Shown here: piece by piece, positions 13,597 to 45,969 of the stretch
Numbering within the stretch: position 1 is the first letter of the stretch
Layout of the letters: each line of letters starts with the position of its first letter
Assembly: GCA_045046875.1 (NCBI GenBank)
Contig: JASFYY010000078.1
Coordinates: 14,383-78,382, forward strand
Direction of reading: 5' to 3'
Source: Verrucomicrobiota bacterium
GTDB lineage: Bacteria > Verrucomicrobiota > Verrucomicrobiia > Verrucomicrobiales > DEV007
Length of the DNA stretch: 64,000 nucleotides
Notes under the pieces: generated by a model
The model's input: only the letters and a program-made list of their open reading frames with translations
The model's database searches: none
Told to the model about the DNA's origin: nothing
Program-made: the position numbers and the translations under genes

Positions 13597-14775
13597 ATGA
13601 AAATCACCTCCATCGAAACTCACGTTTGTCACGCGCGCATGCGGAACTGGATTTTTGTCAAAGTGTTGACTGATCAACCGGGTCTTTATGGCTGGGGGGA
13701 AGCGACGCTTGAGTGGCATACCAAGGGAGTGTTGGGTTCGATTGAGGATCTGGCAGAGCTGGTGGTGGGGGAAGATCCTCGGCGAGTCGAACATCTGTGG
13801 CAGATGATGCATCGCCAGCATTTTTGGCATGGGCACGGTGCGGTGCGGGCTACGGCCATTGCGGGTATCGATCTTGCGTTGTGGGATATCCTCGGCAAAG
13901 TCGCTAATCTTCCCTGCGCGCAATTGTGGGGCGGGCCGGTGCGTGATTATGTGCGCACCTACTGTCATCTTGGCGGTGGCAACATGGAGGATTTTTATGG
14001 AACAGCTGCCGACGATGCCAAGAAGTTTGGTGAATTGGCACAGGCGGCGGTTGAAGACGGTTACACCGCTTTCAAGTCGATGGCGGTTCCTCCGACGATG
14101 CCGATCGAGGGATTAAAACCGATCCGCGCCGCGGAAGCGGCAGTGGCGGCGATGCGGGAAGCGGTGGGTGATGACATCGACATCATGGTGGATTGCCATG
14201 CGCGTCCTTCACCGGCGATGGGTCTGCAGTTTGCCAAAGCGCTTGAACCTTACGGTTTGTATTTTTTCGAAGAGCCCTGTTGGCCGGAAAGCATCGATGG
14301 TCTGGCGATGATCAATGCGGCGGTGACCACACCGATTGCCACCGGTGAACGAGTGACCAATCTGGCGGCCTTCCGCGATTTGTTCAACGCAAGGGCGTGT
14401 GAAATCTGTCAGCTCGACATCACTCATTGCGGAGGATTGAGCGAGGCGCGTCGGATCGCGGCTTTGGCGGAGGCGCATCGTATCGCACTCGCACCGCATA
14501 ATCCCCAGGGTCCGGTCAGCACCGCAGCTTCCTTGGAGTTTGGTTTTTCCCAACCGAGTTACATCATCTGCGAAACGGTGCACAACGATGTGCCCTGGCG
14601 TGATGACATCATCGATGACGGCTGGACGATGGAAAAAGAGGGGCGCATTGTGCGGCCTAATCAACGGCCCGGACTCGGCATCGAATTAAACGAAGATGAA
14701 ATCAAAAAACATCCGCCCGAGAAAGAAGTGATCCAGCGGGTTTTTTATAAAGATGGCAGTGTGGGGGATTGGTGA
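13597..14775 (+). CDS. dgoD: D-galactonate dehydratase-like (mandelate racemase/enolase superfamily)
   Basis: [66 protein letters not shown] end. Confidence 0.85.
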
Positions 14776-37614: not shown

Positions 37615-39699
37615 TCACTTTTCAATCACCAGTCCTTTATCAGGATCTGGTCTGGCGATCATCACGCTACCACCCCTTTTATCTCCTTTACCCGATCCAC
37701 GGGCGATCAGAAATCGGCCCTTCGAAATTCCGACAATTCCCATCCCGCAATCAAAATCGTAACGACCCTCGAGTTGAAAATTCTTGTCGGTTTTGAGCAA
37801 TTGTTTTCCATAACAACCAAACCACCAATGTCCGTCGTGGTAGGCCAGGGTCTGCACTCCGAGTTGGGTGTAACCACTTTTGATCACATGTTGCTCGATG
37901 AACTTGAAGTCGGGGGTGTAGCTGTAGGCGTAATTTTCCGTAATTCCTTCGGGCAATCCTCCAATCACAACAAAAATGCCGTCATGGTAAGCCATGCCGC
38001 CCGCGCCGTGAACCACTTCGGGAACGGGATGTTTCGAGATTAGAGAAAGATCATTCGCATTGTAAACATAAACCCAGGAATCCGCCCTGCCTGCAGGTTT
38101 GTTGAAGCTGCCCAGATTGACTGCCACATAAATTTTGCCGTCGTGATAACACAGATCGCCGTGATGTATAGGCACTTCGATTTTTTTGAGGACATGTCCT
38201 TTTGCGTCCGTCTTGACCAGAGTCGAGGTGAAGGGCCAATAGATCGCGCCGTTTTCATCCGTGCAGATACCTTGCAGGTGATGGCGATAGATTCCTTCGC
38301 ACTGGATGTTGTCGGGACTGTTCGTTTTCTCATAGGCACCGATGTCGTATGCTTTTCCCTGGGGTCGCGTGTTTCCATCAAAATCAGAGTTGGGAGCTTT
38401 TTCGGAGGAGCCTCTGTCGATGGCGGGAGAATCTTTTTGCAGGCGAAAATCCGCCAAGGCGGCATTGACGAATTTGGGATCACCTTTCACCGCATTTCTA
38501 CCGCGAATCCGGATCTCGGGTGCAGGGCCAAACAGGTTGTGATCCATGGTCAGGTCTGCATCTTTTAAACTGCCAAGATTGATCGCCGCTCGGCCTTTGC
38601 TGGAGAAAATGTTGTTGCGGATAGTCAAGTTCTTGAAATTTTCTTTAACTTCCGTCATGCGCACTGCCAGTTCGTTGTTGTGAAAGGTGTTGTTGATCAA
38701 GCTGATATCTTTTTTCAAATGAGTTCCCGGCTTTTCGTAATGATGAATCGAAAACCCGTGGCGGTTGTCATAGATCAGGTTGTTGTAGATTTTGATATTT
38801 GTCAGGCTGCCGCCGAGTTCGGTTGCCAGACTGATGCCACTCTTGGCGTCGTGAATGGTATTCTGGTAAATCTCGATATTTTTTCCTTCAGTGCGGCTGG
38901 AGTCGATATAAATACCCACTGCAAATTTGGTGTAAAAATCATGTACGTGGTTGTGATGGATTTTCCCATTTGTGCTACCCTCTTTGGCATCGATGCCTTC
39001 TTTGTGGATGTGATGAACGTGGTTGTTCATGATTTCGAAGCCGTTTACACCACAAAGCGAGATCGCTTCCTGACTGCCACTCATATTGGTCTCAGTGATC
39101 TCGTTACCGTCAATGACGATGTCAGAAATGCTCCAGCGAGCTTTATTGAACCAGGCATGGACGGCGCTGGAATGGCATTTTTTAAAATGATTTTTTTCAA
39201 TCGAGATGTGATTGACATTGCCTCTGATCTCGATGCCAAAATAGGCAGAGTTGGTGAAGTTCAGTTCAGAAATTTTTATATAGCTGGTGCCATTGATATG
39301 AAATAGCCCTGCCCAATTATAGGCAATGCCCGCCCCATCGATGGTGGCACGTTCGCCAGGGTAGGAGGTGTAAGTGATATAGGCTCCCGGCTTGCCGGGG
39401 TTCTTCGGGAGCACTCGTTCATTGTAGGAACCTTCTCTGATGAAAACGGTGTCGCCGGCGATCAGGGTGTCGGCGGCGTGCTGGATGCTTTTCCACGGTT
39501 TAACTTCTGAACCGGAGGCGTTGTCATTCCCCTGCGGAGAGACATAATAATCAGCGGCATTTACAAAGCCGATGCTGGTGCTTAGGAAAAGAAGAAGAGT
39601 GCAGGGCAGGCGGAGCGCCCGCCCTACAAAGGCTGTCCATGAGGCAGGGAGGATTGTAGCGCGAGCGCTTCGCTTGCCTCGATTGGGAGTGGGCATCAT
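37615..39699 (-). CDS. secreted right-handed beta-helix protein (DUF1565-like start, choice-of-anchor Q-like region) fused to a C-terminal beta-propeller-like domain
   Basis: YYVSPQGND..SGS..KPWKSIQHA; Asn-rich PbH1 repeats; DFRLQ.DSPAID.G...YDIGAYE; then HLQGI, HHGDL, HGAGG, LGVQT. Confidence 0.8.
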   Translation of the reverse strand: MMPTPNRGKRSARATILPASWTAFVGRALRLPCTLLLFLSTSIGFVNAADYYVSPQGNDNASGSEVKPWKSIQHAADTLIAGDTVFIREGSYNERVLPKNPGKPGAYITYTSYPGERATIDGAGIAYNWAGLFHINGTSYIKISELNFTNSAYFGIEIRGNVNHISIEKNHFKKCHSSAVHAWFNKARWSISDIVIDGNEITETNMSGSQEAISLCGVNGFEIMNNHVHHIHKEGIDAKEGSTNGKIHHNHVHDFYTKFAVGIYIDSSRTEGKNIEIYQNTIHDAKSGISLATELGGSLTNIKIYNNLIYDNRHGFSIHHYEKPGTHLKKDISLINNTFHNNELAVRMTEVKENFKNLTIRNNIFSSKGRAAINLGSLKDADLTMDHNLFGPAPEIRIRGRNAVKGDPKFVNAALADFRLQKDSPAIDRGSSEKAPNSDFDGNTRPQGKAYDIGAYEKTNSPDNIQCEGIYRHHLQGICTDENGAIYWPFTSTLVKTDAKGHVLKKIEVPIHHGDLCYHDGKIYVAVNLGSFNKPAGRADSWVYVYNANDLSLISKHPVPEVVHGAGGMAYHDGIFVVIGGLPEGITENYAYSYTPDFKFIEQHVIKSGYTQLGVQTLAYHDGHWWFGCYGKQLLKTDKNFQLEGRYDFDCGMGIVGISKGRFLIARGSGKGDKRGGSVMIARPDPDKGLVIEK
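39605..39678. repeat. GTAG-type REP inverted doublet inside the 5' end of a CDS
   Basis: GGCAGGCGGAGCGCCCGCCCTACAA-N24-TTGTAGCGCGAGCGCTTCGCTTGCC. Confidence 0.8.
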
Positions 39700-41255
39700 T
39701 TGGATTTTTTCTTTTTTTTGCGTGGTTTTGATTTAGGAATCACCGGTGGAGTTAGCCCGTCATCAGGCTGATTCCACAAACGATAAGGATCGTTCAAGCG
39801 GCGTTGTTCGCTGAGCAGCAGGGCTTCCATTTCGGCGAGTTTGTCAGCGTAGGCGGGATCTTCGGCGAGGTCGCGTTGGTTCTTTTTGGGAGTGTTGCCA
39901 GTGAGTTTGATGGTCGCGGGATCGTGGTGTTCGGTGAGCAATTCGTTGGGGTTCTCTGCCAGGTTGAAGAGTTGGGTCTCCCGGACGGAACCATCCATGA
40001 CGTCATATTTGATGAGTTTCCAATCGCCCTTTTTGACACTGCGCATTCCCGGCTTGGTGCCGCCGCAGTAAACGCCGTAGAGCACGTCGCGAACGATGTC
40101 TTTTTTGCCTTCGAGCACCGGTTTGAAACTGAGGCCTTCGCTGCTATCAGGTTTGCTCACTCCGGCGAGGTCACAGATCGTGCTGAGCACATCAAGCAGG
40201 TAGATGTTGCCTTTGGCGCGTGATCCCGGAGCGATGCCAGGGCCTTTGACGATGAAAGGGACACGCCAGGTGTGTTCGTAGAGGTTTTGTTTGCCTTGCA
40301 AACCGTGACGTCCGATGGCGATGCCGTGGTCGGAGGTGTAGAAGATGTATGTATTGTCGAGCTCGCCCATTTTTTTGAGTTGCTTGAGAACTCGTCCGAT
40401 CTGGTTGTCGATGTTTTCGGCGCAGGCGTACTCGCGACCGAGTTCATTGCGGATGGTGCGTTCGTCGCGATTTTTCCAGACGCCACTGACCGCTACTTCG
40501 TCGCGCAGTCCGGGGTGGCCGTGATGGAAGGGGTGTCCGGGCAGGTAGTTGACTTGCAGGGCGGGCTGTTTGGGGTTGGCGGCTGGCAGCACGTTTTTGT
40601 CGGTGTGATTGCTGGCACCGTATTTTGCCAGCAACTCGGGTGTGCCGTCGCGGGTGTCGTGCGGGTGGGAGAAGCCGTAGTAGATCAGGAAAGGTTTGCG
40701 GTCTTTTTGTTGGGCGCGATCACCGAGGTAGTCGATGATTTGTTCGCCGTGCCAGGCGCTGCCGCTTTCCGTGGTGCCGCCACGTTTGGTGGAGTCATTG
40801 CGGATGGTGAATTGTTGGTTGGCGTCTTCGTAAGAGTTGCCGTTTTTGCATGTGCGTACGGTGTCGTATCCAGCACGGTTGAAGACCGCTGCCATGGTAT
40901 GGTTGGCGAGGTCGGTGGGAACCAGTTTGGGTTTTTTGACATTCGGGTTGCTGGTGCGGCCGCGTTTGTCGGGGATGTGCCAGACGGATCGACCGGACAT
41001 GATCATGTGGCGTGACGCGGTGCAGACAGCGCCCACCCAGGAACCCATTTGATGCGCGCCATCAAAGGTCATGCCTTGTGCGGAGAGCTGGTCGAGGTTG
41101 GGGGTGTCGAGCGGAGATTTGGGGTCGTAGGCTTTTAGGTCATAGGGGGATTGATCATCGACGAGGATGAACAGAATGTTGGGGCGCTCTGCGGATAGCA
41201 GGGTGGAGAGGGATAGTTGAATTAGAAGGGCGGTGAGCAGTGTGAGGTGTTTCAT
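39696..41255 (-). CDS. sulfatase (S1 family)
   Basis: RPNILFILVDDQ; CTASRHMIMSGR; HPHD; SDHG; GKQNLYE..RVP. Confidence 0.95.
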   Translation of the reverse strand: MKHLTLLTALLIQLSLSTLLSAERPNILFILVDDQSPYDLKAYDPKSPLDTPNLDQLSAQGMTFDGAHQMGSWVGAVCTASRHMIMSGRSVWHIPDKRGRTSNPNVKKPKLVPTDLANHTMAAVFNRAGYDTVRTCKNGNSYEDANQQFTIRNDSTKRGGTTESGSAWHGEQIIDYLGDRAQQKDRKPFLIYYGFSHPHDTRDGTPELLAKYGASNHTDKNVLPAANPKQPALQVNYLPGHPFHHGHPGLRDEVAVSGVWKNRDERTIRNELGREYACAENIDNQIGRVLKQLKKMGELDNTYIFYTSDHGIAIGRHGLQGKQNLYEHTWRVPFIVKGPGIAPGSRAKGNIYLLDVLSTICDLAGVSKPDSSEGLSFKPVLEGKKDIVRDVLYGVYCGGTKPGMRSVKKGDWKLIKYDVMDGSVRETQLFNLAENPNELLTEHHDPATIKLTGNTPKKNQRDLAEDPAYADKLAEMEALLLSEQRRLNDPYRLWNQPDDGLTPPVIPKSKPRKKKKKSK

Positions 41256-41330
41256 GGTTATAATTGTTATTAAATTGGTGGGTGTGGGGGGTAATGGTTT
41301 GGCGCGGGTTGGAGGGTGGTTCGGGGGATA

Positions 41331-41353
41331 CACGGATTGCCAATCCGTGCTAC
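41331..41353. repeat. GTAG-type REP palindrome
   Basis: CACGGATTGCCAATCCGTGCTAC, related to 6962-6987 and 10577-10600. Confidence 0.65.
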
Positions 41354-41360
41354 GTGGATT

Positions 41361-42890
41361 TTAGTGACTGCGGCCGTTTTCGATCAAACTGGCGAGTTGT
41401 TTTTTTAGGCGTTGTGCAACATCCGGGTGCTGCTTGATGACGTTGTGTTTTTCCGCCGGGTCTTTTGATAAATCATAGAGTTGAAATTTTGGCACCGGCG
41501 TGTTTTCGAGTTGTTTGGCGACTTCCAGATTGCGGGTGCGTTTTTTGTCGTGACGTTGTAATTTCCAATTTCCGACAAGGAAGCCGTAATTGCCGGCGTT
41601 GCCGTTGTCTTGTTGAATGAGCGACTCACGTCCTTTGGCGTCGGCTTGTCCAAGTAAGGCGGGTAATACGTTGAAACTGTCGAGGTAGGCATTGTTAGGT
41701 ATGGGGGTTTGGGTCAGTTCAGCGAAGCTGGCAGCGAGATCGATGGTGCAGACCATTTTGTCTGATACTCCGGGTTGGATTTTGCCTTTCCAGCGAGTGA
41801 TGAAGGGGGTGCGGGTGCCGCCTTCATAAACACTGTATTTGCCGCCGGAGTAAGGACCGGATGCGCGGTGATCTCCGAGTTTTTCAATCGCAAAATCCTT
41901 GTAGCCGTCATCCATCACCGGGCCGTTGTCGGAGCAGAAAATCACCAGGGTGTTTTCTGCCAGATTGAGGCGGTCGAGGGTTTTCATCAGCTCGCCGACC
42001 CCCCAGTCGAGTTCGACGATGGCATCCCCGCGGAAGCCGAGCGGGGTTTTGCCCTGGAACCGTTCGTGCGGCATGCGCGGCACATGCAGGTCGTGTGAGG
42101 CGAAGAAGAGGAAGAAGGGTTGGTTTTTATTGGCTTCGATCCGCTCGACTGATTTCTCGACCCACTTGTCGGTGAGGTCTTCATCGCGGAAACGCGCGGC
42201 GTGACCACCGGTGTAAAACCCGATGCGGCTGATGCCGTTGTGAATGGTTGAGTTGTGTCCGTGCGACCAGTCCATTTTCAGGGTGTCGCGATGGCTGATA
42301 CCGGTCGGGTGATCCGGGCTGGGTTTTTTCTTACCGACCCACAGCGGGTCCTTGGGATCGAGATTGAGAACCCGGTGGTTCTCGACATAAACCTGGGGCA
42401 CGCGATCGTTGGTGGTGGGTAGGAGGAAGTTGTAGTCGAAGCCGATTTCGCGTGGTCCGGGTTTGAGCTCACCGTTCCAGTCAGGACCTGCTTTGCCGCC
42501 GAGTCCAAGGTGCCATTTGCCGATCACCGCGGTTTGGTAGCCTGCCTTTTTGAGCAGATCTGGCAAGGTGAAGGTGTCGGGAGGAATGATCAGCGGGCTG
42601 TTGGGGGCGGCGATGCCCTTGCCTTTTTCGCGGAAAGCGTAGGTGCCGGTGAGGAAGGAGAAGCGGGTAGGGGTGCAGGTCGAGGCCGAGCAGTAACCGC
42701 TGGTGAAGCGTTGGCCCTCGGCGGCGAGCCGGTCGATGTTGGGGGTTTTGAGCGCGGTGGCACCGTAGCAGGAAATGTCGCCGTAACCGAGGTCATCGGC
42801 CATGATGACGATGATATTGGGTTTGTCCTGGGCGGAGAGAAAATGGGTGGCAGCAAGAATCAGGCCGCAGATAGTGAGGGATAAACGCAT
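41361..42890 (-). CDS. arylsulfatase (S1, Cys-type)
   Basis: PNIIVIMADDLGYGD; CTPTRFSFLTG; GKWHLG; SDNGP; GKYSVYEGGTR. Confidence 0.95.
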   Translation of the reverse strand: MRLSLTICGLILAATHFLSAQDKPNIIVIMADDLGYGDISCYGATALKTPNIDRLAAEGQRFTSGYCSASTCTPTRFSFLTGTYAFREKGKGIAAPNSPLIIPPDTFTLPDLLKKAGYQTAVIGKWHLGLGGKAGPDWNGELKPGPREIGFDYNFLLPTTNDRVPQVYVENHRVLNLDPKDPLWVGKKKPSPDHPTGISHRDTLKMDWSHGHNSTIHNGISRIGFYTGGHAARFRDEDLTDKWVEKSVERIEANKNQPFFLFFASHDLHVPRMPHERFQGKTPLGFRGDAIVELDWGVGELMKTLDRLNLAENTLVIFCSDNGPVMDDGYKDFAIEKLGDHRASGPYSGGKYSVYEGGTRTPFITRWKGKIQPGVSDKMVCTIDLAASFAELTQTPIPNNAYLDSFNVLPALLGQADAKGRESLIQQDNGNAGNYGFLVGNWKLQRHDKKRTRNLEVAKQLENTPVPKFQLYDLSKDPAEKHNVIKQHPDVAQRLKKQLASLIENGRSH

Positions 42891-42925: not shown

Positions 42926-43654
42926 TTAACGTGATTGCGGAGTGGGGTTTATGTCCCGGCGGCGGCGGAGGAAACCGATGGCTCCGAGCACGGTTACGGC
43001 GAGGGCGAGAAAATGGTAGCCGCTGAAGGGGCCGAGAATACGCGGGGTGGAGCGGATGAATTCGTGGCCGAAGCGGAACAGGCCGTAAGAGATGAGGTAA
43101 AGATGGAAGTGTTGGCCGGGCAGGAGTTGTCGTCGGCGCATGAAGAAGAATATGGCGGCGGCGGTGAGATTGAAAACTAATTCAGCGAGCGGGGCGGGCC
43201 AGCGGGGGATTCCAGATTGGTCGTTTAGAGTGAACCAGGCTGGGCTGCATTTTATCCCCAGGCAGCAGCCGTGTACGAGGCAGCCGATGCGACCGGCGGC
43301 GATGCCGAGCGGCACGGCGCTGGCAAACCAGTCGCCGGTGGGTTTGGCATAACCAGTGATCCATTTGCCGAACTCAACTCCGGCGTATCCGCCGAGCAAA
43401 GCGCCGAGGACGGTTTTGCCGCTGGCGAGGTAAATGAGGAAGTGAGGGTCGCTGCGGTAGAGCCAGCTTTCGGCTGCAAGGTAGCCGATTTTTGCTCCGG
43501 CAAAAGCAGCGACGATGCCGAAGGCGTAGATTTGCATCAGGCGATGGTCATCGCGGAATTTTTTCGACCACCACAGCGCGCCGAGCAGGATGCCGCCGAG
43601 CATGATGATGAGGTAAACCGGGCTGCCGTTGCTGAGAATCTGGTGCCGGGTCAT
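42926..43654 (-). CDS. divergent prolipoprotein diacylglyceryl transferase (Lgt family paralog)
   Basis: multi-TM; GAKI; GKTVLGALLGG; GRIGCLVHGCCLG; WPAPLAE; YG.FRF..EFIR. Starts 2 bp after the rSAM stop. Confidence 0.85.
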   Translation of the reverse strand: MTRHQILSNGSPVYLIIMLGGILLGALWWSKKFRDDHRLMQIYAFGIVAAFAGAKIGYLAAESWLYRSDPHFLIYLASGKTVLGALLGGYAGVEFGKWITGYAKPTGDWFASAVPLGIAAGRIGCLVHGCCLGIKCSPAWFTLNDQSGIPRWPAPLAELVFNLTAAAIFFFMRRRQLLPGQHFHLYLISYGLFRFGHEFIRSTPRILGPFSGYHFLALAVTVLGAIGFLRRRRDINPTPQSR

Positions 43655-43656
43655 TT

Positions 43657-45000
43657 TTAAGCAGAGCTGCAGTCGGAAAATCCAGAATAATAACGGCAGA
43701 AGGAATCGAGCTTGCCATCCGGCCGGATGACATGAGTGCAGCAGCGGTCGATACGGTCGTCGTCCCAGCTTTGCGCGTCCATGAAGGGTTTGATCAGCAG
43801 GCGGAAGGTGTGCGATGCGGCGAGCTCGAATTGTTTGAGCAGCGCGCCGAGTGGTTCGGAATCGCAGCCGCAATTTTCTAGATCTTCGAGTCGGTAGCGT
43901 AGGCGGTCTGAGAGGAATCCCTGCACTTCGCTGAAATCAACGAAGTCGCTGATCGAACGGATTTGGCCGTTGATTTTGAGTAAATAACCGATGGTCGCGC
44001 AGTTGGGATCACCGCAGGGCAGGGGAGTGAAGTCGGCGCTTTTGAGTTGTCCTTGCGATTGTTCGATCGCAGAGAGGATAATGTCAGCGACGTTGAGATG
44101 AGGCGCTGGCTCTGCGTTTTCATTGGCAATGCGGCCGCTGCCAAACATGGGTTGAAAGCTGATGCCGCGCACATGAGGGTATTGCAGGCCAAATGAAATG
44201 CTGTCCCAGATTTGGTTAAGGTTATCAGGGATGACCGTCATGGCTAGAGTGACGGGTAGCTTGATTTGCTCGCAGCGCTCGATGGCGAGTTGTTTGATTT
44301 TGCGTAAGTCGGCTCCGCGCAGGGTGTGGTGACCGGTTTCTCCCGGACCGTCGTATTGTAAATAAATCTGCATGTGTCCGCGTTTCACCGCGGTGCCAAG
44401 TTGTTGTAAAAAATGGTCGTCTTTGGCGATTAAGAGGCCGTTGGTATTGATCAGGATGTAATCGATCTTGTCATGAGCGTTAGCCCATTCGAGCAATTCG
44501 AAGAACTGCGGGTGTAGAGTGGGTTCACCGCCGGACAGTTGCAGGATTTCGATGCCGCCTTTGCGTGCGATGACTCCTGAGATGCGGGTTTTGATCTCAT
44601 CGAGGGGAACGGCATCGACCGGACCGGTGAGGGAATCGGCAAAACAAGTGGGGCATTTGAGATTGCATGAATTGACGATTTCGATCAGGGCGACACAGGT
44701 GGAGAGGCGTTCGAAGGCGGCGGTTCCGGCGGAGGAAGGACTGTTGGTTGCGCAGCAGGAGCCGCTGTCGCAGCACTCATCTTTCGTGGCTGGCGAGCCG
44801 TGTGATTCCCAATAGAATTGGGAATCGGAGCTGAGCAGAGTCCATTGATCACCGTGATCGGGGCAGCTTCGTTTCATGAAAACCTGTGAGGGGGCTGCGC
44901 CGGACAACCAGACTTCGGCTGCGCATGAATCGTGGCATTCGAGGCAACGACTGCGGGTGGATTTGAGTTGCCGGGTGAGCTTGGGTGGGGTGGGTTCCAT
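43657..45000 (-). CDS. radical SAM protein, Tes/GDGT-MAS (MJ0619)-like
   Basis: N-terminal CLEC...CPDHG; CNLKCPTC; QLSGGEPTLHP; NTNG; YLQYDG; PLPCGDPNC; FMD...D..R..RCCTH......G.L.SFCRY. Confidence 0.85.
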   Translation of the reverse strand: MEPTPPKLTRQLKSTRSRCLECHDSCAAEVWLSGAAPSQVFMKRSCPDHGDQWTLLSSDSQFYWESHGSPATKDECCDSGSCCATNSPSSAGTAAFERLSTCVALIEIVNSCNLKCPTCFADSLTGPVDAVPLDEIKTRISGVIARKGGIEILQLSGGEPTLHPQFFELLEWANAHDKIDYILINTNGLLIAKDDHFLQQLGTAVKRGHMQIYLQYDGPGETGHHTLRGADLRKIKQLAIERCEQIKLPVTLAMTVIPDNLNQIWDSISFGLQYPHVRGISFQPMFGSGRIANENAEPAPHLNVADIILSAIEQSQGQLKSADFTPLPCGDPNCATIGYLLKINGQIRSISDFVDFSEVQGFLSDRLRYRLEDLENCGCDSEPLGALLKQFELAASHTFRLLIKPFMDAQSWDDDRIDRCCTHVIRPDGKLDSFCRYYSGFSDCSSA

Positions 45001-45013
45001 GTGATAAGGGCAA

Positions 45014-45358
45014 TTAAAAACTACCGATAAGGCATCCGCCTATTCCCAGAGCGAATGCTGTAATAGAGCATAGAATGAAATACGTGAGGCTTCCAGAAAC
45101 GGCCAATGCCAGAGATGTCGATGGGTTTATTCGTGAGAGGTGCCAAGAGCATATAGCACCTGCAAACAGTGGGACGAAATATAAGAGTGCATTCATTTTA
45201 GTAGAAAATTCTGAATCCCAGTCCAGCGGTGACAACCATCCTGGCATAAAAAACATCATTAATAGGGCAGGCGTGAATAAACTGCCAAAAAAAATCCAGT
45301 AGTTGAAACTCGGTGAGGATTTTTTAGTTGGCGGGGGAAGAGGCTGTTCTGAATTCAT
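45014..45358 (-). CDS. small 3-TM membrane protein with C-terminal GGC-x5 (candidate substrate B)
   Basis: 114 aa; Pro-rich N-terminus; ends ALGIGGCLIGSF; paralog of 45441-45779. Confidence 0.75.
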   Translation of the reverse strand: MNSEQPLPPPTKKSSPSFNYWIFFGSLFTPALLMMFFMPGWLSPLDWDSEFSTKMNALLYFVPLFAGAICSWHLSRINPSTSLALAVSGSLTYFILCSITAFALGIGGCLIGSF

Positions 45359-45440
45359 GATGGTAGGAGGTCACTTATACGATAGAGACTATCAAACAAA
45401 CCACTTCAAGGGCAAACGCAACGGTGTGACATAGCAGGAT

Positions 45441-45779
45441 CTAACTAATAGCTATGATACATCCACCGAAACTGAGAGCCCCTGCTCCTAACGTTGATGC
45501 AACAAAAAGTCCAAGTCCGGTGAAAAATTTCTTTGTGGGAGAAAGGGATTGACGGGAACGCATTAGGATTTCGCAGCAGAAAGCGCCCGCTACTATCGAC
45601 ATCAGAAAGCATAGAAGCATTAAATTGAGAGCGACGGTGAGTTGATCGCCTTTCATGAAGAGTTTGAGAATTAAGGTTATTACTCCAGGTGCGAGCATAA
45701 ACATGAAAAACAGTCGAGGGCTGTATGGCGGGTTGTTTGGGTTTTTATCAGGTGGCTGAGTAGGGATGTTTGTATCCAT
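45441..45779 (-). CDS. small 3-TM membrane protein with C-terminal GGC-x5 (candidate substrate A)
   Basis: 112 aa; Pro-rich N-terminus; ends ALSFGGCIIAIS; leaderless promoter TTGCCC-N18-TAGCAT-N6-ATG. Confidence 0.75.
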   Translation of the reverse strand: MDTNIPTQPPDKNPNNPPYSPRLFFMFMLAPGVITLILKLFMKGDQLTVALNLMLLCFLMSIVAGAFCCEILMRSRQSLSPTKKFFTGLGLFVASTLGAGALSFGGCIIAIS

Positions 45780-45969
45780 GCAGGGATGCTAACAAAGCGA
45801 GGGTGAAAGGGGCAATCGTTTATCTCGATGGTTTTATCGCTTAGAGTGATGGCCTTGTTTTCTTAATCCGAGAAGAGTTGTTTTTCCTCTTTTCATCTGG
45901 AAAAACCCGATTACATATATCGCGCGGCGTAAAAAACAGGCGCGGCGACCATTTTTATCTGTAAATATT

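Follow-up and report, generated by a model that had tools for sequence, protein, structure and literature searches.

Organization of the locus

The 64,000-nucleotide stretch of DNA analyzed here (the window; positions 14,383 to 78,382 of contig JASFYY010000078.1, assembly GCA_045046875.1) originates from a Verrucomicrobiota bacterium and carries a cassette of four genes which encode two small membrane proteins, a radical S-adenosylmethionine (SAM) enzyme and a paralog of the prolipoprotein diacylglyceryl transferase Lgt. All four genes are located on the minus strand. Small membrane protein A (45441-45779; 112 aa, three predicted transmembrane helices) is followed by its paralog, small membrane protein B (45014-45358; 114 aa), by the radical SAM enzyme (43657-45000; 447 aa, with an N-terminal Zn ribbon), which belongs to the Tes/TrsS/HMPTM superfamily, and by the Lgt paralog (42926-43654; 242 aa), which is of the N146C/E151C class. 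Successive genes are separated by 82, 13 and 2 bp. This arrangement had been described in a first-pass annotation of the window, and our check of the open reading frames (ORFs) bore out the co-orientation, the coordinates and the spacing. The translations likewise agree with its reading that both small proteins end in Gly-Gly-Cys and five further residues: protein A terminates in SFGGC-IIAIS, with G105-G106-C107 encoded at 45459-45467 (-), and protein B in GIGGC-LIGSF, with the corresponding triplet at 45032-45040 (-).

Conservation of the linkage

The linkage of the radical SAM enzyme, the Lgt paralog and Cys-tailed small proteins is far beyond chance. When 40 relatives were compared for the presence or absence of the three components, a radical SAM ortholog (57-83% identity) and the Lgt paralog were found in the same ten genomes, adjacent and co-oriented, and both were absent from the other 30. 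The small-protein profile (E<=1e-5) matched in six of these ten cassette-bearing relatives and in none of the 30 others, and the matches are located directly upstream of the radical SAM gene, save for one extra copy in relative G322, which resides on another contig and off the cassette (G322:C38:19749-20066). Because the relatives are kin and thus not independent, no p-value is given for this comparison. The distribution is patchy even at close range, with the cassette present in 1/5 genomes of the genus and 8/24 of the family. In one relative, G316, the gene for the Lgt paralog contains an in-frame TAG (G316:C605:598-1275).

A pattern scan of the GTDB species genomes returned 14 loci, one of which (L027) was dropped as a non-relative (25% identity over 154 residues). 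At the eight Verrucomicrobiota loci (radical SAM identity 57-83%) the paralog follows downstream in all cases where the contig allows; at L017 the contig ends first. The paralog also resides beside the radical SAM gene at distant loci from Methylacidiphilum (L021), Hamadaea (L022 and L023) and Armatimonadota (L024). The loci of all four groups each possess one to three small ORFs on the same strand whose products display a hydrophobic helix followed by [GA][GAT]C or LxC and 5-14 residues. A phylum-wide sample of 300 genomes yielded no close ortholog of the radical SAM enzyme and five distant radical SAM enzymes (28-35% identity), and from a metagenome scan with a 15-row radical SAM alignment the best 80 of 591 relatives were kept. 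Together with the GTDB loci, this amounts to 99 radical SAM loci, which were scored for an Lgt-like ORF on the same strand within 3.5 kb and for a Cys-tailed small ORF within 3 kb. An Lgt-like ORF was found at 55 of the 99, a Cys-tailed small ORF at 50 and both at 36; for the 43 loci flanked by at least 2 kb on each side, the respective numbers are 31, 25 and 23, with neither found at ten. By comparison, 7 of 3216 control ORFs, taken from the other strand or from more than 3 kb away, passed the Cys-tail test. The 56 linked Lgt-like ORFs display the motif GRxGC (42), GRxAC (2) or GRxGN (3); in the remaining nine, several of which are split or run into a contig end, no such motif was found.

A FastTree phylogeny of the 88 complete radical SAM sequences (11 truncated ones excluded; rooted on L026) was consistent with this picture. 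In the window's subclade (n=21, support 1.0) 18 members are Lgt-linked, three reside on contigs too short to tell and none is unlinked, and a Cys-tailed ORF is present in 19/21. In the Lgt-associated group (n=64, node without support value) 50 are linked, ten are on contigs too short and four are unlinked, and in the other clade (n=22, support 0.988) these numbers are 2, 14 and 6. The three-way linkage, on which the first-pass annotation had made its proposal depend, is thus kept in Verrucomicrobiota, Actinomycetota (Hamadaea), Armatimonadota and many metagenome loci. The cassette is self-contained, widespread across bacterial phyla, horizontally patchy and inherited as a unit.

The small membrane proteins

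Proteins A and B are paralogous but diverged (27% identity, E 6e-6). As the sole matches to the family profile (A4) in the whole genome, they are likely to be dedicated substrates of the two enzymes. An AlphaFold 2 (AF2) model of protein A, based on a 57-row alignment, places helices at residues 21-41, 46-75 and 81-111 (pLDDT 84), and the GGC motif resides within the last of these. C107, the key residue of the family, is invariant in the small-protein alignment (A2), and G105 and G106 are invariant or nearly so. Conservation of the terminal Cys, the second point that was decisive for the earlier proposal, was determined by an exhaustive HMMER search of 1.84 billion representatives with an alignment of 11 BLAST-defined homologs as the query; this search was used instead of a word-indexed one with the small-protein alignment, which had yielded only six matches. 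The HMMER search returned 149 matches at E<=1e-3, 24 of them at E<=1e-10. A script identified a Cys after a hydrophobic helix inside the last 26 residues in 143 of the 149; three more possess GGC with a slightly lower hydropathy, so that the Cys is present in 146/149 family representatives. Among the three Cys-less matches, one reads GGA, and the other two, given their tails and their domain pattern, are probably non-members. In most sequences the motif is F-[GAFVL]-G-C, the commonest versions being FGGC, FAGC, CFGC and FFGC. In contrast to this conserved Cys, the tail that follows ranges from 2 to 21 residues across the family (mode 9-10) and is variable in sequence. The first-pass annotation had also raised the possibility that a lipo-hexapeptide is released from the C-terminus, an idea that is weakened because the tail varies in both length and sequence and, in the AF2 model, extends the last helix.

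All small proteins examined from the close clade carry a net positive charge in the loop that precedes the last transmembrane helix (35/35), and the loop between the first and second helix contains 0-1 basic residues. According to the positive-inside rule, the proteins are predicted to adopt an N-in/C-out topology with the Cys at the periplasmic face; the CxxC...CxxC zinc ribbons with which some homologs start would fit a cytoplasmic N-terminus. Position -1 is G in 28/35, position -2 is G or A in 28/35 and position -3 is F in 23/35. The layout of a lipoprotein signal, that is, a positive segment, a hydrophobic helix, small residues at -2 and -1 and a Cys, is therefore found in the small proteins and, given the predicted topology, the geometry would be that of a lipoprotein signal peptide plus lipobox, on the side of the membrane to which the Lgt active site is open. 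The placement is not that of an N-terminal lipobox, as the motif is located 2-21 residues from the C-terminus and has F at -3, where the lipobox consensus prefers L.

In the ESM Atlas the nearest cluster to protein A is an unannotated Verrucomicrobiota family (0.92). A lead to the NCBIfam model NF058595 ('lipo-invert putative C-terminal anchoring domain') was rejected as chance-level: protein A scored 15.1 bits against a cut-off of 37, none of 13 small proteins from other loci matched, and all 14 control genomes match at E<=1, none of them over the cut-off. No paper on this domain was found in our literature search. A predicted complex of the Lgt paralog and protein A gave ipSAE values of 0.01 and 0.00 in runs made without controls.

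The radical SAM enzyme

The radical SAM enzyme matches Pfam Radical_SAM (PF04055) and Zn_ribbon_HMPTM (PF23545; 39.6 bits) and aligns to the structure of GDGT-MAS (7tol) with an E-value of 1.7e-37. The cysteines of its cluster motif C112-x3-C116-x2-C119 (CNLKCPTC; 44644-44667, -) are invariant in the radical SAM alignment (A1). The protein thus combines the Zn ribbon, the CX3CX2C motif and the 7tol homology of Tes/GDGT-MAS. It remains well below the cut-offs of the corresponding NCBIfam models, with 168.7 bits versus 450 for Tes (NF045702) and 234.9 bits versus 490 for TrsS (NF045646), the latter being its best-scoring model. As it falls under the Tes cut-off and scores higher on TrsS, the enzyme is not Tes proper; its sequence places it in the Tes/TrsS superfamily, as a member of neither named family and in a sister clade to Tes proper. 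The first-pass annotation had considered the enzyme Tes-like, which holds at the level of the Tes/MJ0619 (GDGT-MAS) superfamily but not at that of the Tes equivalog. A scan of 87 related radical SAM enzymes identified a single one, L026 from Bacteroidota, that passes the Tes cut-off (578 bits), and its locus is without an Lgt-like neighbor; none passes the TrsS cut-off, the best score being 405 (L086). No transmembrane or hydrophobic segment is predicted for the window's enzyme (maximum 19-residue hydropathy 1.23), and its best family matches include no RRE or SPASM peptide-binding signature. Similarly, no sulfatase-maturase model is among its 25 best NCBIfam matches.

The Lgt paralog

The Lgt paralog matches Pfam LGT (PF01790) over residues 14-228 with 88 bits, compared to a cut-off of 24.9, and remains below all NCBIfam lgt equivalog cut-offs (TIGR00544, 41.1 versus 118.9; NF000778, 73.6 versus 334). 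A Foldseek search with its AF2 model (pLDDT 91.2) returned E. coli Lgt (5azb) as the sole PDB match at E<=0.001 (E 7e-7, prob 1.00, TMq 0.61). Residue-by-residue alignment to 5azb revealed that the signature GRLGNFINGELWG of the E. coli enzyme reads GRIGCLVHGCCLG in the paralog (43256-43294, -), which corresponds to the substitutions N146C, N149H and E151C and leaves R143 and G154 in place. R143 and R239 of Lgt are essential for transfer; the block formed by Y235, R239 and E243 is also kept in the paralog. In the E. coli structure, as far as the available text of Mao et al. describes it (PMC4728403), N146, N149 and E151 are part of a polar network in the periplasm-facing active site, and the HGGL motif is proposed as the lipobox site. 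These three residues of the network are replaced in the paralog, and H103GGL aligns to L-G-A-L. Across 44 aligned paralogs G-R-x-G-C, R122, Y190, R194 and G133 are invariant and E198 is nearly so; in total, GRxGC and 12 other columns are invariant.

A loop predicted at the periplasmic side of the paralog (43256-43294 and 43241-43255, -) is rich in cysteines (C125, H128, C130, C131, C136) and might possibly represent a metal site or form disulfides. Of these, C130, C131 and C136 show almost no variation across the aligned paralogs and are absent from those of Hamadaea and Methylacidiphilum. As the first-pass annotation had assumed, the genome possesses a separate canonical lgt, which is located on another contig (212 bits, Pfam); a single lspA is located elsewhere in the genome. 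A paralog 55% identical to that of the window is encoded by Chthoniobacter flavus Ellin428 (P0074).

Longer homologs of the paralog (P0132-P0143, P0136 and P0144; 47-56% identical) were searched for fusions. In 11 clusters an additional hydrophobic, signal-like stretch joins the paralog to a PF00144 serine-hydrolase (beta-lactamase-family) domain, giving proteins of ~600 aa; one fusion carries an Rce1-like CAAX-protease domain (P0136) and another an amidohydrolase. At L036, a PF00144 gene is located directly 3' of the paralog. An apparent fusion of radical SAM enzyme and paralog (P0131) has a garbled middle and is without the radical SAM C-terminal motifs, so that it looks like a gene call spanning a frameshift; P0145 was likewise not counted as a fusion.

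Accessory genes and flanking regions

Membrane methyltransferase genes of the ICMT/PEMT family adjoin the Tes-like radical SAM gene at L028, L030, L032, L057, L074 and L104, and none is present in the window. A profile built from three members, which match Pfam ICMT and/or PEMT, matches 7/99 loci, the weakest (27 bits) at a contig end. Together with the hydrolase fusions and neighbors, these genes fit a further processing of a lipidated Cys in the relatives. A DUF4395 gene (Pfam) is located beside the radical SAM gene at L030, and a similar-looking ORF at L057. At L051 and L052, the partner protein has a lipobox-like Cys after its first helix and no C-terminal tail, and the partner at L030 carries a classical N-terminal lipoprotein signal with lipobox. 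Thus, the C-terminal placement is a feature of the window's clade and not of the system as a whole.

Downstream of the Lgt paralog and on its strand lie two sulfatase-like genes, the first after a gap of 35 bp (41361-42890 and 39696-41333, -), and the L014 ortholog of the first matches PF00884 (Pfam). As they are common to the window and L014 and absent at the other loci, they are probably not members of the cassette. A promoter and terminator scan revealed nothing above shuffled expectation inside the operon, and neither a tRNA gene (ARAGORN) nor an Rfam family above gathering score was found in the whole 64-kb window.

Proposed function

The cassette probably makes an unusual lipid-modified membrane protein. 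In the scheme that we favor, at a rough probability of 0.45 and hence just short of even odds, it is a dedicated lipidation system in which the paralog alkylates the periplasm-facing Cys of the FxGC motif and the radical SAM enzyme remodels the lipid tails. The last helix, the positive loop in front of it and F-x-G-C would mimic a lipoprotein signal peptide and lipobox at the C-terminus. In the first step, the N146C-class paralog, which has retained the fold of Lgt and the two arginines that bind phosphate and in which HGGL and the polar network are changed, would move a glycerolipid-type moiety from a phospholipid to the Cys as a thioether, leaving the ordinary lipoproteins to the housekeeping Lgt. 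In the second step, the soluble Tes-like enzyme might carry out Tes-type radical chemistry on unactivated hydrocarbon tails from the cytoplasmic face, either on the donor lipid before transfer or on the lipid once it is bound to the protein. This would yield a protein with a cross-linked, macrocyclic or membrane-spanning lipid. More specifically, it might be speculated that the radical SAM enzyme reaches the membrane midplane from the cytoplasm and couples the tail ends of the outer-leaflet glycerolipid, attached to the Cys by the paralog, either with one another or with a lipid of the inner leaflet, giving rise to a macrocyclic or membrane-spanning anchor; we regard this variant as rather doubtful.

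Several points weigh against a dedicated lipidation system. The topology, the relationship between enzymes and substrates and every step of the lipidation chemistry are what we infer from sequences, gene order and modelled folds; while the linkage, the conserved Cys and the superfamily assignment of the first-pass annotation held up, its chemical claims (diacylglyceryl transfer to the Cys, cross-linking of the tails by the radical SAM enzyme and Lsp cleavage to a lipo-hexapeptide) found no direct support. N146, N149, E151 and H103, which belong to the canonical polar network and the HGGL motif, are missing from the paralog, and a bioRxiv preprint, in the portion available, presumes low Lgt activity for the N146C homolog MSMEG_5408. 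It is not possible for both enzymes to act directly on the Cys, since the radical SAM enzyme would reside at the cytoplasmic face and the Cys is predicted to be periplasmic. With respect to the linkage, the small-protein profile missed four of the ten positive relatives, a Cys-tailed ORF as defined here is absent from 19/55 Lgt-linked loci, several loci without the C-terminal Cys-tail carry a Cys after the first helix instead, and four radical SAM enzymes of the Lgt-associated group are without an Lgt-like gene despite flanks of at least 2 kb. Finally, the 35 proteins used for topology and motif positions were picked by the Cys-tail criterion and are circular with regard to the Cys, while the test on the 149 HMMER matches is independent of it.

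The cassette might instead serve a lipid pathway only, in which the radical SAM enzyme and the Lgt-fold enzyme make a specialized lipid, e.g., a macrocyclic glycerolipid or one with coupled tails. In that case the paralog would transfer a glycerolipid headgroup or backbone to a lipid, and the small proteins would act as scaffolds, chaperones or regulators, their Cys not being a substrate but, for instance, a transient covalent intermediate or a ligand. Such a role would be in line with the loss of the lipobox-binding motif HGGL from the paralog and with the bulk-lipid substrates of known superfamily members, namely Tes/GDGT-MAS (PMC8941075) and Mss (PMC13459092), as given in the available parts of both sources; moreover, the ICMT/PEMT-family neighbors in distant cassettes could be phospholipid methyltransferases. 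However, a near-invariant Cys that follows a signal-like helix in surroundings resembling a lipobox is what an Lgt-fold enzyme recognizes, the small proteins co-vary with the enzymes and are found nowhere else in the genome, and in distant cassettes a classical protein with an N-terminal lipobox can serve as the partner (L030). We consider a pure lipid pathway unlikely. The radical SAM enzyme and the paralog could also be unrelated neighbors, the latter a decayed lgt duplicate of low activity and the former serving, for example, the maturation of the downstream sulfatases. Anaerobic sulfatase maturases are radical SAM enzymes, two sulfatase-like genes do follow the paralog closely, with PF00884 assigned to an ortholog at L014, and the preprint mentioned above, in its available portion, presumes N146C paralogs to be poorly active. 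Yet the flanking genes vary between loci while the core cassette stays, the match of presence and absence is perfect (10/10 and 0/30), and GRxGC plus 12 other invariant columns in 44 paralogs argue against decay. A sulfatase-maturase function of the radical SAM enzyme was rejected on the basis of synteny and family scores, and the notion of unrelated neighbors as such is close to refuted by the synteny data.

A pathway resembling those of peptides that are made on the ribosome and modified after translation (RiPPs) or of CaaX proteins also has to be considered. The three transmembrane helices would then serve as a leader and the variable C-terminus as a core, with a peptidase cutting beside the lipidated Cys: a cut before it, by LspA or a similar enzyme, would free a short lipopeptide (here Cys plus five residues), while a cut after it would leave a lipidated C-terminal Cys, perhaps methylated in relatives. 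The radical SAM enzyme could in this case act directly on the peptide. The pairing of a conserved body with a tail that is hypervariable and 2-21 residues long does resemble the logic of leader and core, and suitable activities are suggested by the fusions of the paralog to an Rce1-like CAAX protease (P0136) or to PF00144 (11 clusters), by the PF00144 gene at L036 and by ICMT-family methyltransferases at 7/99 loci. In addition, lipobox-bearing RiPPs which depend on the lipoprotein pathway are known, as stated in the available part of PMC13056109. Against this, the window cassette contains neither a protease nor a methyltransferase, and the single lspA is encoded elsewhere; with five residues behind it, the Cys is not four from the end, as a CaaX box would have it. 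The tails are short, hydrophobic and modelled within a helix, and do not represent an obvious bioactive peptide; methylation by means of SAM has to take place in the cytoplasm, while a periplasmic position is predicted for the Cys; and the best family matches of the radical SAM enzyme are without a recognizable RRE or SPASM signature. We regard such a pathway as distinctly improbable.

Novelty and implications

Bacterial Tes homologs have been discussed almost exclusively as candidate synthases of brGDGTs, the branched glycerol dialkyl glycerol tetraethers, or of membrane-spanning lipids, as judged from the available parts of PMC8941075 and PMC13459092. The former (Zeng 2022) contains, in that part, no mention of diacylglyceryl, neighbor or gene cluster, and the latter, a 2026 review of lipid-modifying radical SAM enzymes, none of Lgt or lipoprotein. 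Our literature search, which did not extend to subscription journals and bioRxiv supplements, found no published cassette of this type among the papers listed and no paper that pairs a tetraether lipid synthase with a diacylglyceryl transferase. The system is widespread and self-contained, and it is apparently undescribed.

Most of the Tes homologs in our radical SAM tree, namely 50/64 in the Lgt-associated group, travel with the special Lgt paralog and with Cys-bearing miniproteins, which would change the reading of Tes homologs as biomarker genes. If the lipid indeed becomes bound to the small proteins, this would provide a first function for a large Lgt-linked branch of bacterial 'Tes homologs', distinct from brGDGT synthesis. 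A dedicated lipidation system would also give a function to the N146C class of 'second Lgt', noted and left unexplained in the available part of the preprint, and would point to a protein-lipid modification without a described counterpart. The cassette is small, comprising four genes that include those of the putative dedicated substrates.

Comparison with known systems

Phosphatidylglycerol:prolipoprotein diacylglyceryl transferase, Lgt (E. coli; 5AZB/5AZC), belongs to the same Pfam family as the paralog and has the same fold, and the equivalents of its residues R143, G154, Y235, R239 and E243 are kept. The presumed acceptor of the paralog is similarly a Cys that is preceded by a hydrophobic helix and has small residues at -1 and -2. 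The two differ in that the periplasmic head insertion is much shorter in the paralog, that its presumed acceptors carry the motif at the C-terminus with F instead of L at -3, and that it is always paired with a Tes-like radical SAM enzyme. Distant Lgts in which N146/E151 are changed to CD or CC, among them MSMEG_5408 of M. smegmatis (Y26H and N146C), have been noted in preprints available to us in part (bioRxiv 10.1101/2025.03.27.645668; 10.1101/2025.01.07.631728). The window's paralog is of the 'CC' type of these N146C-class 'second' Lgt homologs, and radical SAM enzymes are nowhere mentioned in the available text of the preprint on them.

With Tes/GDGT-MAS (MJ0619 family; 7TOL/7TOM), the radical SAM enzyme has in common the Zn ribbon (PF23545), the CX3CX2C motif, homology over residues 12-335 and a C-terminal CC...C; a difference is that its host is a bacterium with ester lipids. 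To TrsS the enzyme aligns over its full length (14-438), albeit under the cut-off, and the context of TrsS is reported to be an organometallic/selenoprotein neighborhood. Eukaryotic CaaX processing, in which a prenyltransferase, Rce1 and ICMT act in thioether lipidation of a Cys near the C-terminus, has parallels in the Rce1-like fusion (P0136) and the ICMT-family genes of cassette relatives. The cassette is distinguished by an Lgt-fold membrane enzyme in place of a soluble prenyltransferase, by tails of 2-21 rather than three residues and by a site which is predicted to be periplasmic.

The closest concept in print, as far as the available part of the paper goes, is that of the DAG-RiPPs (PNAS 2026, PMC13056109), ribosomal peptides which are likewise lipidated at a lipobox Cys via Lgt chemistry. 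They use an N-terminal signal peptide, the housekeeping enzymes Lgt, Lsp and Lnt and an MNIO enzyme, whereas the cassette described here has a dedicated Lgt paralog, a radical SAM enzyme and a C-terminal motif, none of which is part of the DAG-RiPP pathway in that text.

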